Below, in pieces: positions 11,115 to 58,866 of a stretch of DNA of 64,000 nt (positions are counted from its first letter, which is position 1; each line of letters opens with the position of its first letter). Position numbers and translations under genes: made by a program. The notes under the pieces were generated by a model. That model searched no databases and was not told where the DNA came from. It was given only the letters and a program-made list of their open reading frames with translations. The stretch is from a virus (Duplodnaviria; Caudoviricetes), in the IMG/VR virus record IMGVR_UViG_3300033463_000005, positions 1 to 64,000 of that record, one strand, 5' to 3'.

Positions 11115-11133
11115 TTAAAAGGAGGAACACATT

Positions 11134-11826
11134 ATGGCAATCTTCAATCCAAATCCGGATCCGGATTATCCGGTTCTGAACGGTCCTGGTTTCATCCAGC
11201 ACACCTACAATCAGCCGTTGGCTCAACAGCAGCAGTTCTATTATAATGGACAGGCCGTTGTTCCGACGATGGTTCCGGCACAGCCCGCTATGCCGATGAT
11301 GGGGAGCATGAATCCGATGGATCAGTCCAGACGGTATGATGCACAGCCGACACCGATGATGGTTCCGGCGCAACAGGCACAGCAGCCGACATTCGGTTTC
11401 AATCAGTTGGCAGAACAGTCCAGACGGAATATGACGACGATTCCGAACCCGGCTCCCCAGCCTGTTCAGACTCCTGCAACAACTACATCGCCGTGGGCTG
11501 TTCAGACACAGCCTGTTCAGGTTCCCGCTATGACACCGCAGTTTGCACCTCAGCAGGCACAGCCGGCATCCATGTATGATCCGAGATATTCCGCAATCTA
11601 TAACTGTCATCCGTCTATTGACAGAAAGTCTGGTGTGTGGGGTGTTCAGGAAGTGTATACACCGTGCATGGCTCCGAGTGTGAATTGGAATGCAATGCAG
11701 ACAGCCGCACCGGCACAGTATCCCCAGATGACATATCCGGCAGTGTATCAGTATCCGCAGCAGGTACAGCAGCCGATGCAGACAAACTGGGAGCAGATTG
11801 CTAAGCAGACATGGGGCAACCAGTAA
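11134..11826 (+). CDS. P/Q/M/Y-rich intrinsically disordered protein
   Basis: AAGGAGG RBS; composition dominated by Q, P, A, T, M and Y. Confidence 0.8.
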   Translation: MAIFNPNPDPDYPVLNGPGFIQHTYNQPLAQQQQFYYNGQAVVPTMVPAQPAMPMMGSMNPMDQSRRYDAQPTPMMVPAQQAQQPTFGFNQLAEQSRRNMTTIPNPAPQPVQTPATTTSPWAVQTQPVQVPAMTPQFAPQQAQPASMYDPRYSAIYNCHPSIDRKSGVWGVQEVYTPCMAPSVNWNAMQTAAPAQYPQMTYPAVYQYPQQVQQPMQTNWEQIAKQTWGNQ

Positions 11827-23567: not shown

Positions 23568-24713
23568 ATGTCTTTCAGTCTCATTATCGGTATCGGTAAT
23601 ACTGGCACGCAGATTGTGAAACTATTGTCACAGTCACCAAAGATCTCAAACTGCAAAATGTATGCAATCGATTCTGTTGCAATGTCTGCTGACATGGAAT
23701 CTGTTCAGAATGTCAAAATGATTCCAGTTATTTCTGATGAAAAGTGTGGTTCGGGTCGTTCTCGTGAACGTGGTGCAGAAATGTTTAAACATCATGATTC
23801 ATTAGGCACATTCAATGAACTATATGATGATGCATCACAGGCATTACAACCAATCTTTGTCATTACATCAACTGCGGGTGGCACTGGCTCTGGTATCACT
23901 CCGGAGTTAATCAAAAAGATTCGTTCATTTGATACAACCGCTGAATCAGAAGAACGAGAAAACAAATACCGTTTCATACCTGTATTGGTATTTCCATCAC
24001 TGGAAGATCCGGATGCATATCATATGAATACATCCGATTTGATGTTGGATTTACAGAATGCAGGAATTGAGACATACACTGTGTTCCGTAATAAATATGG
24101 AACAGCAAACTATTCTAAAATCAATCAGGATATTGTGAATTCGATTGAATTGATTCTCGGAAAACTTTATGGTGATACAAATGTTGATTCTATTGATGAA
24201 TCTGATTTGGATGTCATCTTGAGTGTACCTGGAAGATTCATATCCTGCATCGTGGAATCGGAAGACCCGACAAAACTAAAAAGATTGATTACGGAGAGCG
24301 CACTTCATAGTTATCAACCTGGATGGGATCCGGATGATACAAAGGAAGGTGCGATTATTTATACTGCGTTCGACCTATGCTCTCCGTTTGCAAAAGATGA
24401 TTTCGCAGATGTGTTTTCCGATATCCGTGCAAGAATCAAACACTATCATGATGAGTACAAAAATATTTGTGAAAAGGATGGAAAGAGTTCAGCCTCATTT
24501 ATCATTGCGGGATTGCCAAATGTTGAATTAAAGAATATCAATATTGATTATGATGAAACCAAAGGGATTGCAGATGGTGCGAAACGTTCGAAACGTCCAG
24601 GATTCCTCTCAAAGAAAAAACCAATTATGGAACAAAAAATTACGAAAACTGATGAAACTGTAAAATCGCAGAAAACTGGTTTAAAAGGTATCGATAATTA
24701 CGATTGGAAATAA
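23568..24713 (+). CDS. phuZ: Tubulin/FtsZ-family GTPase (PhuZ-like)
   Basis: IGIGNTG, AIDS, GSGRSRERG, AGGTGSG signature and SIDESD T7 loop. Confidence 0.9.
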   Translation: MSFSLIIGIGNTGTQIVKLLSQSPKISNCKMYAIDSVAMSADMESVQNVKMIPVISDEKCGSGRSRERGAEMFKHHDSLGTFNELYDDASQALQPIFVITSTAGGTGSGITPELIKKIRSFDTTAESEERENKYRFIPVLVFPSLEDPDAYHMNTSDLMLDLQNAGIETYTVFRNKYGTANYSKINQDIVNSIELILGKLYGDTNVDSIDESDLDVILSVPGRFISCIVESEDPTKLKRLITESALHSYQPGWDPDDTKEGAIIYTAFDLCSPFAKDDFADVFSDIRARIKHYHDEYKNICEKDGKSSASFIIAGLPNVELKNINIDYDETKGIADGAKRSKRPGFLSKKKPIMEQKITKTDETVKSQKTGLKGIDNYDWK

Positions 24714-24807
24714 TTGACTCTGAATATTCTGATATCAGATATATACATAATTGCTGTGATATCTGGTACCTCAGAATATCAAAATATCATAAGGAGGAAC
24801 ACCTATT

Positions 24808-25713
24808 ATGCAAACCATGGTTTACTCGCAAATGTATCCAGGAGATGTGAATTTCCTGGATTCTGTCGAGACCTATCTGAGAAAGACAGGACTCCCGGCA
24901 GGAATCACACCACAGGAGCGTCTGATCGTCGCGGAGCAGGCTCGTAACACACTGTATTCGTATGATGTGCAGTGCATTCCGAGAATTGCAAACAAGATTC
25001 TTACCTCTGATATGGAGAGTGATCAGGAAGCACGTGCTTTGTGGCTGGCCTTCACAAATCATGTGATGGATCCCATCTTTGTCCAGTTCCTGATGCAGTA
25101 TCTCGCTACAAGAGGTGACCTGTCTCTGAATGGTCAGGTTGGTGCGTTGCTTTCAAAAGCGCTCGACAAATTTTTCAAAGATCACAAAGCAGAGATTGAT
25201 GAAAAGAAAAAGGAAAACAAGCTTCCTGAAATCGAAGAAGTGAAGCATATCCAGGCGGCAATGGAATCGTTGCTTGGTAAAACTGCTGCTGATATTCAGG
25301 TGAGTGTTGCCGGTCTTTCTCATCCGGAAGCATTGTTTGTCGCCTCCTGCATCAACATCAATTCCAAAGAAACGATCATTGAACTGCTCGATTCCGGTCT
25401 TGGTATCACGGCAGATATCTTTGATCTGATCAAAGACCCTGATAATCTGGTGAGAGGTTGTCTGTCACTTCTGAAGTCAGAGGTTCCGACAAAGCCGAAT
25501 AAGAACCAGACTGCATTCCTGGATTCAATCAAGCGTTGGACATTCCTGAAGCTTGAACACATTCCTGGTGGAAATGCGGTATGTTATCAGTATCTCGTCG
25601 GTGTATATGGTAGCGTGAAGCCCGATGTATCACCGTACTATATCCAGATCAAGGATTGCGGTACAACGTTTCCAAATCTGATTCAAGTTGCGAAGCAGAT
25701 TGTGAATAAATAA
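24808..25713 (+). CDS. Hypothetical protein
   Basis: AAGGAGG RBS; early-type promoter at 24744. Confidence 0.8.
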   Translation: MQTMVYSQMYPGDVNFLDSVETYLRKTGLPAGITPQERLIVAEQARNTLYSYDVQCIPRIANKILTSDMESDQEARALWLAFTNHVMDPIFVQFLMQYLATRGDLSLNGQVGALLSKALDKFFKDHKAEIDEKKKENKLPEIEEVKHIQAAMESLLGKTAADIQVSVAGLSHPEALFVASCININSKETIIELLDSGLGITADIFDLIKDPDNLVRGCLSLLKSEVPTKPNKNQTAFLDSIKRWTFLKLEHIPGGNAVCYQYLVGVYGSVKPDVSPYYIQIKDCGTTFPNLIQVAKQIVNK

Positions 25714-32969: not shown

Positions 32970-33340
32970 ATGAAAATTGAAAAAACGACAACCGGTGTGA
33001 TTATCCGTGAGCCAAATGATATGGTAAAACGGAAATGTTTGGCTTATTTTTCATTAGACAAACCTCTTCGTGAATTTTTTATCTACACAGGTAATGATCC
33101 GGATAACCATGGATGGTTTGGTGGTGAACGTGATGTTATTTACATCACTTCAGGATTCTTATCGTTATCTGATCCGGACATTCATAAGTTGAAAGTGGAT
33201 TCCGTAAAACCAATTCCAACTCCAAAAAAGATCGAGTTGAAAATGAACCGAGAACCCCGTTCCGATTTACAACGTGATTGCATTCAAAAAGTAACAACAT
33301 CGAATACAAATAAAATCACAATGGAACTAAAGCCTGGTGT
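32970..33340 (+). CDS. SF2 (UvsW-like) helicase, exon 1
   Basis: PRSDLQ Q-motif; splicing restores Walker A ELKPG-V-GKT; 481-aa product. Confidence 0.88.
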
Positions 33341-33667
33341 TGAACTTTACCGGCACCCGCGTACGGTGACGTGCGTGAAAAATACACCCCATTGAATTGC
33401 TGGGACGATAACTCTAATGCTCACAATGCTACAACGTAACGATGAAATATGCGTAAGCGTGAATGCGACGAAAGTAGAAAGAAATTGTGAGATGATGCAT
33501 GGTTAAATCCTAAACATCACAAGAATGAGCAATCAGCAGCGAAGCCTTGAATAGAGGAACGTTCGTCGGTCATTCTGTGTTTAACAGATTAGGAGTTTCA
33601 TTAGCTCCGAAGCGGTGGGCATCTCATATATATGAGATGATGATATGACCAAGCGGGTTGAACGCCG
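33341..33667 (+). mobile_element. Group I intron without ORF (327 nt)
   Basis: P1 GGUGU/GCACC with the U.G pair at 33340; P10 UUUACCG/UGGUAAA; AATTGCTGGGA and AATCAGCAG core; P7 GGTCA/TGACC; terminal G 33667. Confidence 0.9.
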
Positions 33668-34742
33668 TGGTAAAACGTTCATTGCATTATATTCCGCATC
33701 AAAGTTGGGATTGAAACCATTGATTGTTGCACCAACATCATTATTGAAAAACCAATGGATTGAGAATATCGTTGAACTTGGTATTGATAAGAATGATATT
33801 GCAACAAAGATATGGGATGCACCCGATAAGAAAGTTTGTGTTGTAACAATTTCCTCATTGGAATTGGCAATCCGTGATGATTGGAATCGGTTATTGAAAA
33901 CATTGGATAATTCCGGATTTGGTATCAAAGTTATCGATGAAGCGCATCTTCATTTGAAAGGTATGCTGAAATTTGATGCTTTGTGTAATATCAAACACAA
34001 CTGGTATCTGTCCGCAACACTTGGAAGATCTGATGCAAAAGAGGATCGTATTTTAAATCGTGCTTTAAAAGATGCGGAACGATTCGTTGGAAATTCATCG
34101 TATGAAGAATATCAAAATGAATATGTCCAAGTATATTTCCAAGATATCTACTATTTCCCGTCATCCAGTTTATGTAAAAAATATTTCAAATATGGATCAA
34201 AGGGATTAATCAGAGCTTCTTATTATAAGATGCTTTTGAATTATCGCGGTGGAGATGCATTCATACGAAATCTGATTACGTTGATGAAACGCACAAAAGA
34301 ACTGTTGAATTATGATGCAAAGATTCTGTTGCTGGTTCCGTTGATTGACATTTTGAAACGGCTGTATGATGTTATGAAACGTGATCCATATTTCAGCAGA
34401 TACAAATTTGCAATCATTGAGGGTCATCTGACATTGTCGGAAAGACGTGAAGCAATGGAATCGGATTTCATTCTGTCAACATCTCTATCGATGGGAACTG
34501 GTGTCGATGTTTCAAATCTTGGTGCTGTGATCAATTTTGACCAATATGCATCACCGATTATTACGGAGCAGATCTTTGGTCGACTTAGAGATCGAGGAAA
34601 GGAAACATACTACATCGACGTTTGTGATCATGTCCGGCAAGCACGCGTGATTGCAAACTGGGGTGAACGCAGAAGAATCTTGATTCCATATTTCCCGGGT
34701 GCAAAACAAACGATCAAAAAGTTTTCACGCATTATATGCTAA
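33668..34742 (+). CDS. SF2 helicase, exon 2
   Basis: GKT, IVAPT, IDEAH, LSAT, GTGVD and EQIFGRLR. Confidence 0.9.
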
Positions 34743-34753
34743 AACATGAAAGT

Positions 34754-34966
34754 AATCCGGAATGTGTTTCGAATCGTTACACCACGTGAATCTTCTCTCG
34801 AAAGATTGGTTACCTGACCCAATCTTTGGTTCACGCAAAATGTTGAGATTCCATCATATGCGAGTCATGATGGGTGTGTTCCTCCGAACCTCCGAGCACA
34901 ATGCCATTCTCGATTAACAACATTCCGGATTTTAGGGTTGTAAGTGTGGGGCTTCGGCCCCACACT
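34754..34966 (+). ncRNA. Candidate structured small RNA A (multibranch, anti-SD loop)
   Basis: AACA-N6-TA promoter puts +1 at 34754, the first base of a 12-bp closing stem (34754-65/34920-31); several inner stems; terminator 34943-66; no credible ORF. Confidence 0.7.
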
Positions 34967-35077
34967 GTATCCTATTATTCTGACTTTTCATATATATATT
35001 ATTAATATGAAGAGAGAATAAATTACTCTCTTTACAAAATTTTTACTGGTCTCTATGAGACCGGAAAGGAGAAAACA

Positions 35078-54524: not shown

Positions 54525-56846
54525 ATGCCGAAAATGAAAGATGACAAAATCACCATTATAACCAATGACATTGAACGTATTCGGAAACGCCCGAGTATGA
54601 TCATTGGTTTTCTGGGTGAGAGAGGTATTCTGCATTTATGCAAAGAAATCATTGACAACAACCGGGATGAATGTATGAAAACGGAATCTCCTGGTAATAC
54701 AATTGAAATTGAAATTTATAAAGACCATATTGTGTCAAGAGATAATGGTAGAGGTTTACCAACAAATCTACTGCGTACGATTCATGAAACATCGCAGGCG
54801 GGTTCTAATATGACACGTTCTCATGGTACAACTGCAGGTGAGAATGGCATTGGTACAACCGCATTCACAGCATTATCCGCAGTATTGATTGTAACGACAT
54901 ATCGGCCACAAGAGAAAAAGAAATTGACATTGGAATATCATGAGGGTATTCTAGTGAATGAAAAACTGGAAGACTATTCGGGAAGTCATCATGGTTTGGA
55001 GACATATTTCAAACCATCAAAGAAGATTCTCGGTGAATCAGATATCCCGATTGATCAATTGATTGAATGGATTCGGGATTTCGAATATACACTTCCGAAG
55101 AAGACAAACATGTCATACACATTGAATGGTGAGAAACATGAACTGAAACACATTCAATTGAGCGATTATTTCATGGAGAATATTCCGAATGATATGTTCA
55201 TGTCTGCACCCGTTACCATTGAATGCAATGGTGAATTACAAGAGATCATCAATGAGAAAACATATGATCGGCATTTTCATGTGGAAGCATCCGTGATGTA
55301 TGCATCGCCGGATTATCGTGGTGAAGACATCAGAAAATCATGGATGAATATGATTTATACATCACAGAATGGTTCTCATATGAATGGTGTCGTGAATGGT
55401 TTGACAAAGTATCTGTCTGATCGTGCAAAAGCCAAGAAGAAAACATTGGAAAGTGAAGATCTGAAACGCGATATTTTATCACATTTGAATGTCGTTGTTA
55501 AAGCCGAATGTGACTTTGCAAACATGTTCTCGTCTCAAGCGAAGTCCACTGTTTTCCCGAGACAGTTGACAACATCGATTGGTGATGCTGTGTACAAAGA
55601 ATTGTGTGATATGAATCAATCAAAACTGAATGAATTAGTTGAGATTGTGATTCAGAATAACCGTGTTCGAAAAGAAGGAGAACGGGTTCGCAATATTGCG
55701 ACGGAGACGAAAAAGAAACAATGGACAAAGCCGGATTCATATCTTCCGTGCGCTTCCATTAAGACGCCTGAACCAAAAGAACTATTCTTGGTTGAGGGTA
55801 ATTCTGCAGCAGGTGGAATCAATGCAGCACGAAATGCAAAGTATCAAGCAATCTTGATGTTCCGTGGTAAATCGCTGAATGCATGGGATTTGACACTGGA
55901 TCAGACACTGAAATCAAATGTTTGGTTTGATTTGGTGAAGGTTCTTGGGTGTGGAATTGGTCCAACATTTGATATCAAGAAATTAAACTTTGATAAAATC
56001 ATCATCTCAACAGATGCTGACGTTGATGGATATCATATTCGTGTCGGTATGTGTTCCTTCTTCCTTCGTTTCATGCCGGAATTATTGGAAGCGGGAAAGA
56101 TTTATATCGCAGAACCACCGTTATACAAACTCGTCAATGGCAAGCAGATTTTGTATGTTGCATCTCACAGTGAGTATATTCAGGAATGTATTCATTCTGT
56201 CGGTAATGCAACATTACAATTCCAAGACAAGAAAGTCAAAGCCGATGTTTTCATTGAACATGCTTTTGATTATTTGAATACACTGGTTGAAGTATCACTG
56301 GATCGTTCGGTGAATCGTTATCTGTTGGAACACATTGCACATGGTATGGCAATTGCAGGATCTGTTGATGCATTCATTGATGATATTGATGAATGGATTC
56401 GTTCTCTGACAAAGACTTATCCAGAACTTGGATTTGATCATAAATCGCATCAGATTATGGCAACGATCGATCTTGTAGATCAGGTGGTTGTTGTGGATGA
56501 AGCATTGTACAATGCGTTGATTTATGTGATTAACATTCAAAAAGAATATGGTATGATTGTAGCATTCGATTGCAGGACAACATCGATTGGACGTTTCTTT
56601 GAGGATATTCAAAAGAAATATCCCGTCATCAAAGAGCGTTATAAAGGTCTCGGCTCATCTGATGCAAAAGTATCAAAGGAAATTATCATGGATCCTCGCA
56701 CAAGAAGAATCTTCAGAATCGACGCATCTGATGTCAATATCATGAAGACATATGACATGTTGGTTGGTAAGACACCGGATGATATCAAAGCGCGAAAAGA
56801 AATGTTAATGAATTTCGAATGGAAACCGTCTGACATCGATACATGA
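54525..56846 (+). CDS. gyrB: DNA gyrase/type II topoisomerase subunit B
   Basis: IRKRPSM, EIIDN, DNGRG, LFLVEGNSAAG, FRGK, TDADVDG and RYKGLG. Confidence 0.95.
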   Translation: MPKMKDDKITIITNDIERIRKRPSMIIGFLGERGILHLCKEIIDNNRDECMKTESPGNTIEIEIYKDHIVSRDNGRGLPTNLLRTIHETSQAGSNMTRSHGTTAGENGIGTTAFTALSAVLIVTTYRPQEKKKLTLEYHEGILVNEKLEDYSGSHHGLETYFKPSKKILGESDIPIDQLIEWIRDFEYTLPKKTNMSYTLNGEKHELKHIQLSDYFMENIPNDMFMSAPVTIECNGELQEIINEKTYDRHFHVEASVMYASPDYRGEDIRKSWMNMIYTSQNGSHMNGVVNGLTKYLSDRAKAKKKTLESEDLKRDILSHLNVVVKAECDFANMFSSQAKSTVFPRQLTTSIGDAVYKELCDMNQSKLNELVEIVIQNNRVRKEGERVRNIATETKKKQWTKPDSYLPCASIKTPEPKELFLVEGNSAAGGINAARNAKYQAILMFRGKSLNAWDLTLDQTLKSNVWFDLVKVLGCGIGPTFDIKKLNFDKIIISTDADVDGYHIRVGMCSFFLRFMPELLEAGKIYIAEPPLYKLVNGKQILYVASHSEYIQECIHSVGNATLQFQDKKVKADVFIEHAFDYLNTLVEVSLDRSVNRYLLEHIAHGMAIAGSVDAFIDDIDEWIRSLTKTYPELGFDHKSHQIMATIDLVDQVVVVDEALYNALIYVINIQKEYGMIVAFDCRTTSIGRFFEDIQKKYPVIKERYKGLGSSDAKVSKEIIMDPRTRRIFRIDASDVNIMKTYDMLVGKTPDDIKARKEMLMNFEWKPSDIDT

Positions 56847-56859
56847 GGAGGTGCCCGTT

Positions 56860-58866
56860 ATGGCATTTGATTGGATGCATGACCCGAAATATGAATTGTT
56901 TGATGATTTATCACAGATTAACGAAATCACAACCCCCGAGCAGATACATGAACTGCTCGGGGATCCCATTGTGTTAGAGCGATATCAAAACAATTATGAT
57001 TACTTGTTCAACCGTGTTGTCGCAATCGGTGAACTGTGCTGGGGTAATCGAGATGAAAATGGCAATAAACTTCAGAAGACTATGATTCAAATCAAAAAGA
57101 GTATTGAAGATAATGTGACAACAGATGTCCGTGTATTACCATTGAATCGATTGATGATGTCATTAACGTTCCTTCGTCCAATTATGATGTATCTGGAATA
57201 CATCAATCTGGATGAATTTCTGTTGGATACCAATATGACAGAAAAACGCAGAAGGACTGTACAAGATCGAATCGTGCATGTTCTCCAACAATTCGGAACA
57301 CCGATTGTGGAGATTCAAGAAAAGATGTCACGGTTATCGCTGGATTGGAAAATGTTGATGATCACATTCTCCGAAGCAGATATGCAAATCTATACCGCAG
57401 AGAATCTGTTCCTTGATCATTATCGGGATTCTGAAATCATCCGCGAAATCAACAACACGGAATATCCACCTGATATGCAGACTGCAGATATTGTGGAAGA
57501 AAATGCAAAACGCTATGAAGTTTTGGAGAAGATTATGCTGGAACGTGGAAACCCGTTCTTTGTCGGAAATAAATATACAAAACTCGTGAAACCGAAACAA
57601 ATGGAAGAGTTGTATATTAACTTCTCACAGATTCCAGATGGTAGAAATATCATTCCGGTTATCATGAATGGAAATGGTTTCCGTGCAGGATATCATTCGC
57701 TGCCAGTGTTCTATACTGGTGCAATTGCAGCACGTGTTCCTGATATCATGAATAAGGACTATATGGGTCAAGCGGGATACTTCAACCGAAATCTGATGAT
57801 GCTTGCATATGGAACCGTATCACCAACCGTGTATGATTGTGGATCACAGAATCCGATTCCGATTACAATTGATGATGTGAATCTTCAAATGTTTGACGGA
57901 AGATACTATTATAATGATCCGCATGATGGTGTTCTTCATGTATTACATAAGAACCAAAAAGACATGATCGGAAAGAAACTGTGGTTCCGTTCTCCGTGTA
58001 CATGCAATCTGAATGAAGATTGCTGTCATATCTGCTATGGTCAACGCGCATTGAAGGTTGCTGATCTAAAAGGTGGATTCATTTATACAACTGAGCTGAT
58101 GACATCACGTGTCTCACAGAACATTCTTTCCGCAAAACATCTTCTGAAAAGTAATGCAGAAAAGATCGAATATTCTGAAAGCTTCGATAAATACTTCATC
58201 GTTGATATGTCAACCATTATCCCGAAAGATGATAAGCGGTTTGACATTTTCATCAGAGAAGATTACATGGATGATATTTCCGAAAAGTTCACATGTTATG
58301 TGACAAAGGATATGATTCCAGTTACAATCTCGAAGTATGCATCATTGTCAATTCCGGATAGTATTATGGATAAATGCAAAGACGTTGTCATTGATGATGT
58401 GACATATCATAAGATTACATCATACAAAATCATTGAATCCGGTGGACAATTTGCAGTTGTCATTCCGATCAATATCATGATGACAAAGAAATACATGGAC
58501 ATCATGCGGTTATTCGAATCTGATATTACGAAGTTTGATTCCATTGAAGCAATTGTGGATGCATTGTCTCATATGTGTTATGGTGTGATTCCAATTCTAT
58601 CAACACATGGCGAAATTTTGATTGGACATCATATTCGTTCTATGGAGAATCGGTTACTGCGACCCGATTGGTTGGTTCCGAATCAGAAATATCAAATCAT
58701 GCGTTTGAAAACAGTGTTGCAGAATATCGAATCGTTTGCAACGGCAATGTCGTTTGAACAAACAAAACACCATCTGTATCATTCTATCTTTGACGAAAGA
58801 AATGAGATCAATCGTGTTGGTGCACGTTCGTTCTCTGATTACATCTTCGGATCCGAGACTTTGTGA
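56860..58866 (+). CDS. rpoC: RNA polymerase beta-prime subunit, C-terminal part (probably non-virion RNAP)
   Basis: AGYFNRNL bridge helix, YDCG, FRSPCTC...CCHICYG Zn site and SQNILSAKH trigger loop. Confidence 0.88.
   Translation: MAFDWMHDPKYELFDDLSQINEITTPEQIHELLGDPIVLERYQNNYDYLFNRVVAIGELCWGNRDENGNKLQKTMIQIKKSIEDNVTTDVRVLPLNRLMMSLTFLRPIMMYLEYINLDEFLLDTNMTEKRRRTVQDRIVHVLQQFGTPIVEIQEKMSRLSLDWKMLMITFSEADMQIYTAENLFLDHYRDSEIIREINNTEYPPDMQTADIVEENAKRYEVLEKIMLERGNPFFVGNKYTKLVKPKQMEELYINFSQIPDGRNIIPVIMNGNGFRAGYHSLPVFYTGAIAARVPDIMNKDYMGQAGYFNRNLMMLAYGTVSPTVYDCGSQNPIPITIDDVNLQMFDGRYYYNDPHDGVLHVLHKNQKDMIGKKLWFRSPCTCNLNEDCCHICYGQRALKVADLKGGFIYTTELMTSRVSQNILSAKHLLKSNAEKIEYSESFDKYFIVDMSTIIPKDDKRFDIFIREDYMDDISEKFTCYVTKDMIPVTISKYASLSIPDSIMDKCKDVVIDDVTYHKITSYKIIESGGQFAVVIPINIMMTKKYMDIMRLFESDITKFDSIEAIVDALSHMCYGVIPILSTHGEILIGHHIRSMENRLLRPDWLVPNQKYQIMRLKTVLQNIESFATAMSFEQTKHHLYHSIFDERNEINRVGARSFSDYIFGSETL

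Follow-up and report, generated by a model that had tools for sequence, protein, structure and literature searches.

The question raised by this locus is whether a structured RNA encoded directly behind a phage helicase gene, here called sRNA A, is a gene in its own right, and whether its complementarity to translation initiation regions elsewhere in the same genome serves to regulate them. The window, that is, the whole stretch of DNA analysed (64,000 nucleotides), covers the first 64 kb of G000, the 258,509-bp record of an uncultured phage with a G+C content of 39%. In the initial annotation, it was proposed that one segment of sRNA A pairs with the ribosome-binding sites and start codons of two early-promoter genes, 24808 and 11134, as a means of repressing their translation. 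Gene 24808 was the best-supported target, and the main support for targeting comes from related phages, rather than from G000 alone.

The helicase encoded at 32970-34742 is 24-28% identical in sequence to the helicases of AR9, PBS1, phiR1-37 and Staphylococcus jumbo phages and, judged by this protein, the phage is a distant relative of AR9 and PBS1. The gene is split here into ORFs of 141 and 365 aa, while in the close relatives L197, L198 and L200 it is a single ORF of 839-840 aa with a LAGLIDADG_3 domain, and the two arrangements therefore represent different mobile insertions in one gene. Elsewhere in the window, positions 54525-56846 specify a GyrB-type topoisomerase subunit (Pfam), and the gene that follows it (56860-58866) has a PHROG match named RNA polymerase beta subunit, and no Pfam match. 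The AR9 study (PMC5312081) gives the early promoter consensus of that phage as ATATATATTAT-N6-G, and the late promoter consensus as AACA-(6N)-TA/G, in which the last base is the transcription start. The early consensus occurs in about 14 copies in the G000 genome. For comparative work, G000 was joined by three whole relative genomes and by eight further loci, each with both an sRNA A homologue and a 24808 orthologue, giving a set of 12 phages.

The core of sRNA A lies on the plus strand at 34754..34931 (178 nt), and consists of a closing helix of 12-13 bp, P1, drawn around several hairpins. It is preceded by a late-type promoter motif, AACA-N6-TA (34743..34754, plus strand), which is an exact match to the AR9 late consensus, and helix P1 begins with the last base of this motif, A34754, at which transcription of the RNA is predicted to start. 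The motif AAC[AG] or CACG-N6-TA directly precedes the first P1 base in most relatives of sRNA A, the majority having AACG or CACG in contrast to the AACA found here; in L200, the spacing of the motif deviates. Across four genomes, AACG-N6-TA is enriched about 3-fold upstream of genes. On its 3' side, the unit is closed by a GC-rich, terminator-like hairpin (34947..34968, plus strand), followed by a repeated early-promoter cassette, and an equivalent hairpin stands 3' of the RNA in those relatives for which downstream sequence was read. The terminator and cassette together (34949-35068) have a second copy at 171525-171645 of the G000 genome, with 87% identity, and are partly repeated at four more places.

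The intergenic stretch that holds sRNA A folds more stably than its shuffled versions (z = -4.8). Homologues, at loci reached via the helicase and via gene 24808, amount to 13 distinct sequences, all in jumbo phages of the related AR9-like group, with RNA lengths of 126-201 nt. Helices P1 and P4 covary across this family, with compensatory changes in P1 at positions 6-9 and 12. Internal hairpins, including the conserved P2 and P3, are common to the family, and a core group shares the motifs CUUCUCC and ACACCAUUCG. Across relatives, the same unit of promoter motif and terminator, with no conserved ORF, is seen at the sequence level. A search of Rfam 15 gave no match at the gathering threshold in the whole window, and only chance-level matches (E >= 1.5) in 34700-35000. 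Pattern scans of viral contigs and one metagenome produced no family members beyond those found via the helicase; other matches in these scans were rejected, as they reflected chance similarity to the palindromic arms of P1. Phage targets were also sought for the other conserved single-stranded motifs, and no consistent gene-start matches were found. As judged from these sequence features, sRNA A appears to be a real, conserved and separately bounded RNA gene with an exposed anti-Shine-Dalgarno (SD) loop.

Additional elements were noticed at the corresponding position in some relatives. Between the helicase and sRNA A, L013 (2140-2370; the same element is found in G003 and L204) and L203 (19264-19600) have extra structured elements that are free of ORFs, each carrying its own terminator. 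The one in G003 likewise begins with TAATCC after an ACA-N6-TA motif and includes GGAGG. It might represent a further sRNA, or else something with which the CCUCC loop described below pairs. In the distant relatives L016-L021, the full RNA is absent and a short CCUCCUA element is found right after the helicase stop, the complement of which, in L018 and L019, resembles a ribosome-binding site and ATG. This element may be a minimal form of an sRNA A-type regulator. In the distant phage G008 (L021/L121), the post-helicase CCUCC element and the site of the 24808 homologue match only in AGGAGGAC, and this phage was left out of the match counts.

The stretch that can pair with ribosome-binding sites and start codons (34866..34885, plus strand) reads CATGATGGGTGTGTTCCTCC and extends into hairpin P4 (34875..34900, plus strand), which has a stem of 34875-34881 / 34894-34900. 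The apical loop, 34882-34893, reads CUCCGAACCUCC and includes two CCUCC motifs with mean unpaired probabilities of 0.77 and 0.92, in agreement with the initial annotation, where the seeds were placed on display in this loop. A CCUCC sequence occupies the apical loop in all 13 family members, with unpaired probabilities of 0.77-1.0, and it is constant while the sequence of the P4 stem varies. Both of the duplexes originally described were reproduced. Pairing with 24793-24810 (18 bp) comprises ten Watson-Crick pairs (34876-34885 with 24793-24802), a 2-nt bulge (34874-34875), and eight pairs (34866-34873 with 24803-24810), two of which are G.U, and has an RNAduplex energy of -28.0 kcal/mol. Pairing with 11121-11137 consists of 10 + 7 pairs, at -26.8 kcal/mol. 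Twelve of the 20 pairing bases are tied up in the RNA's own fold, at an opening cost of about 10 kcal/mol, and the net pairing energy is only about -10 kcal/mol, since P4 encloses the greater part of the segment. Duplex energy and opening energies were used for these estimates. Joint folding of the complete RNA and each start region with RNAcofold was dropped, because P4 lies inside P1 and any intermolecular helix would be a pseudoknot, which RNAcofold is unable to form.

Gene 24808 (24808..25713, plus strand) specifies a protein of 301 aa that is predicted to be all-helical, and its translation initiation region, 24793..24810 (plus strand), runs from the SD sequence GGAGG through the AUG. Upstream is a variant early-type promoter motif, ATACATAAT-N6-G (24743..24758, plus strand; predicted start G24758), followed by a 5' hairpin at 24758-24780, and both motif and hairpin are kept upstream of 24808 orthologues. 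From the likeness of this variant motif to the AR9 early consensus, we infer an early-type timing class for the gene. The original description of the two targets as early-promoter genes is not supported in that form: the 24808 motif is a variant and not canonical, and gene 11134 comes second in an operon that follows a variant promoter similar to that of 24808. The 24808 product belongs to no Pfam or PHROG family, and a protein atlas search returned nothing usable. Its 74 homologues are all unnamed or hypothetical, with the exception of one automatic label. The AlphaFold model is all-helical, with a pLDDT of 89, and had no fold match in PDB or BFVD at E <= 0.001. Immediately preceding the gene is a tubulin-like ORF of 381 aa (23568-24713; Pfam Tubulin_2, Tubulin). 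A tubulin-like gene stands directly upstream of the 24808 orthologue in all relatives, indicating that the AR9-like clade carries a PhuZ-type tubulin.

Within G000, the significance of the complementarity depends on how the question is put. When the CCUCC core was kept fixed and its 25-nt flank shuffled, a best start region as good as that observed was obtained in 26% of shuffles (P = 0.26), and the caution originally attached to the claim, that significance would be moderate given the generic SD bases, was a fair one. The number of starts bound at <= -26 kcal/mol was eight, against 1.8 expected (P = 0.004), and the flank-shuffle p-values for the individual sites were 0.006 (24808) and 0.004 (11134). 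Among 275 SD-bearing starts, genes 24808 and 11134 ranked 1st and 3rd by duplex energy, and 6th and 4th after correction for accessibility, so that both start regions fall within the top 2% of the genome. With accessibility included, six start regions (24808, 11134, 235152, 139839, 236177 and 87478) tie at -10 to -14 kcal/mol. The last four equal or outscore the first two, and the two genes are not singled out as selected targets within this genome. All six have a ribosome-binding site of the GGAGGAA(C/U)A type. The extended site GGAGGAACAC has four copies in G000, all at ribosome-binding sites (11121, 24793, 87465 and 236164). AACAC is the third commonest 5-mer following GGAGG in G000, where only 3 of the 1024 5-mers occur at least four times in that position. 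The tied starts and the result of the shuffles mean that, within G000, the RNA matches a recurrent extended site and not one outstanding gene.

A different picture was obtained for gene 24808 from the related phages. Its orthologues are 51-64% identical, and each lies about 10 kb upstream of the RNA of the same phage. In the four whole genomes, the 24808 orthologue ranked 1st of 275 starts (G000), 2nd of 261, 4th of 379 and 7th of 297 in duplex energy with its own RNA, and 6th (G000), 4th, 14th and 4th by accessibility, and gene 24808 was the best among 66 four-member orthologue groups, whether the discovery genome was included or excluded. Flank shuffles gave p <= 0.028 in 10 of the 12 phages, the exceptions being L199 (p = 0.09), which has a mismatch in the core, and L200 (p = 0.78), which has no extended match. 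The mean duplex energy of RNAs with the target of the same phage was -28.3 kcal/mol, compared with -24.2 kcal/mol for mixed pairs, a difference with a permutation p of 0.0002 over the 12 phages and 0.0012 over nine lineages represented by one phage each; since the phages are related, neither the shuffle nor the permutation tests are independent, and combined p-values overstate their independence. Only three of nine targets were bound best by their own RNA, and the own-pair advantage was weak when the SD was left out (p = 0.04).

The matches themselves extend beyond the SD in different ways. Exact complementary runs of 13-15 nt are present in G002, G006 and L202, and one of 12 nt, GGAGGAACACCC, in L197. 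The match in G003 is AGGAGGAACAUC. The runs in G002, G006, L202 and L197 count among the phage-specific matches at the start codon, and such matches are also found in G005, where GGAGGAAA is accompanied by AUGCCAUG and ACAGCC, in L201, where GGAGGAAA is accompanied by CUCAUGG, and in L203, where GGAGGAA is accompanied by CAUGACGACGG. At the level of sequence, the complementarity to 24808 is kept and partly co-varying in related phages, and the co-change of sRNA and target is a modest effect, with two lineages lacking the match.

Gene 11134 (230 aa; initiation region 11121..11137, plus strand) gave less uniform results. The shuffle p-values of its orthologues were 0.004 (G000), 0.154 (G002), 0.033 (G001) and 0.004 (G003), with accessibility ranks of 4, 35, 45 and 5, respectively, and in these four genomes the phage's own RNA was no better than the RNAs of the other phages. 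The site of the G005 orthologue has a 10-nt run and CAUG. As a pointer to targeting, the complementarity originally described is strengthened for 24808, the match of which is kept in relatives, but is of mixed value for 11134, which has no own-RNA advantage and is a weaker, possibly secondary, target candidate of sRNA A. The genes at 56860 (668 aa) and at 87478 of G000 (134 aa) behave like 11134, and the start region of the former also pairs well with sRNA A in three of the four genomes. All three genes could be additional, secondary targets by virtue of the common site, or they could be bystanders. The extended site GGAGGAACAC of 24808 is also present at 11134, 87478 and 236177, and the genes that share it may likewise be co-regulated, or bystanders. 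The start regions at 11119-11140 and at 87463-87484 of G000 include an identical stretch of 22 nt, from AAGGAGGAACAC through ATGGCAA. The genes that start there, of 230 aa and 134 aa, are unrelated.

Other accounts of the locus need to be weighed against an antisense role. It might be supposed that there is no RNA gene, and that the region is the 3' end of the helicase mRNA with its terminator or, read on the minus strand, a ribosome-binding site (GGAGGAACAC...ATG) serving a very short ORF. The region does lie directly 3' of the helicase stop in the window, and its minus strand resembles a ribosome-binding site and ATG. However, the U.G pairs of P4 favour the plus strand, as they would become A.C on the minus strand, and in several relatives the RNA is parted from the helicase, by a second terminator (L008, L013/G003 and L203) or by an inserted gene (L007), with the promoter motif remaining attached to the RNA, making this explanation highly improbable. 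A small protein gene on the minus strand was considered as a candidate and rejected, the ORF having 4 codons here, 17 and 35 in two relatives, and being absent elsewhere, so that neither its length nor its sequence is conserved. A structured RNA with some other main job, such as binding a phage or host protein, would account for the large size of the RNA (up to 201 nt in the family), its long closing helix, and the conserved hairpins P2 and P3 and single-stranded motifs, for none of which a target in the phage came to light, an architecture that exceeds the needs of a simple antisense RNA. On this view, complementarity to ribosome-binding sites would be incidental, the loop reading CCUCC by accident or going back to an ancient inverted duplicate of the 24808 leader. 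The linker that precedes P4 varies from phage to phage and yet stays complementary to the start of that phage's own 24808 gene. A by-product or decaying copy is disfavoured because this complementarity persists across proteins that are only 51-75% identical, and the explanation is regarded as quite unlikely.

The remaining alternative is that sRNA A is a general anti-SD RNA, with a CCUCC loop that binds many phage or host SD sequences and broadly damps or sorts translation, the longer matches merely reflecting the A-rich spacers usual after GGAGG. Several results fit this view: the tie of six start regions in G000, the excess over chance in the number of strongly bound sites but not in the best site, the frequency of AACAC after GGAGG, the resemblance in every phage of the complement of the P4 arm to a typical A-rich spacer, and the good scores of several orthologue groups other than 24808. 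It does not readily account for phage-specific matches that go past the spacer to the start codon and the opening codons of 24808 orthologues, nor for own pairs outdoing mixed pairs, nor for the position of 24808 at the top of the 66 orthologue groups even without the discovery genome, and is considered unlikely.

The account preferred here, with moderate confidence, is that sRNA A serves its AR9-like jumbo phage as an antisense RNA acting in trans. It would probably be transcribed from the late-type promoter at A34754 and end at the hairpin 34947-34968. The CCUCC loop of P4 would first touch the SD of the gene 24808 mRNA, and pairing would then extend along the 5' side of the P4 stem and on through the preceding linker, over the spacer and the AUG, so that ribosome binding is blocked and translation of the early-type gene 24808 is turned off late in infection; the duplex of sRNA A and 24808 mRNA may also be cut. 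It is reasonably probable that a late RNA acts on 24808 by such seeding, zipping and blocking of initiation, the transcription, timing and translational repression all being what we infer from sequence. The extra conserved parts of the RNA (P2, P3, CUUCUCC and ACACCAUUCG) suggest that base pairing may not be its only job. A broader and decidedly tentative proposal is that, in jumbo phages with RNA polymerases of their own, sRNA A heads a post-transcriptional timing circuit, in which an RNA made by the late polymerase silences a few early-type genes, while its extra domains recruit a protein or nuclease. If so, the early-type set would consist of 24808, 11134 and others with the shared extended ribosome-binding site, and sRNA A would be a phage ribonucleoprotein, more than a plain antisense RNA.

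If sRNA A works as proposed, AR9-like phages would gain an RNA step in their two-polymerase switch from early to late expression, and a conserved gene beside tubulin would be flagged as needing a time-limited product. The related phages provide natural sets of matched RNA and target variants, which can be used for compensatory tests. Literature searches found no trans-acting RNA regulator of virulent or jumbo phages that acts on the phage's own genes.

Pairing of C-rich loops with SD sequences is a feature of the Firmicute sRNAs of the RsaE/RoxS and RNAIII types. Like these, sRNA A is trans-encoded and structured, has C-rich motifs in an apical loop, is proposed to block initiation by pairing with GGAGG and the adjoining bases, and may serve several targets with a common site. 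Unlike them, it comes from a jumbo phage of the virulent type, where an RNA polymerase of the phage probably transcribes it, and the target best supported is one of the phage genes. It displays CCUCC, identical to the anti-SD core of 16S rRNA, whereas their motif is UCCC, and it has no sequence or Rfam relation to them.

The c4 antisense RNA of phages P1 and P7, as summarised in PMC12197685, prevents translation of a phage mRNA by means of loop-displayed sequences complementary to the region of its ribosome-binding site; it is about 77 nt long, has two short complementary loops, is cut from the operon transcript of its target, and serves temperate-phage immunity. sRNA A resembles c4 in its proposed loop-displayed pairing at a phage ribosome-binding site and in a specificity that differs between related phages. 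It differs in forming a gene apart from its target, which lies about 10 kb upstream, and in having a promoter motif and terminator to itself, in being longer throughout its family (126 nt or more) with one main pairing hairpin, and in belonging to a phage without sign of lysogeny. With the late units of AR9, sRNA A shares AACA-N6-TA with a predicted start at the last base, as well as the type of genome. In most of its relatives the promoter has AACG or CACG, and the passages of the AR9 study retrieved by a term search mention no small RNA (PMC5312081). The proposed mechanism is the one already known from Firmicute C-rich-loop sRNAs and from c4 of P1 and P7, while the RNA family and its jumbo-phage setting appear to be new.
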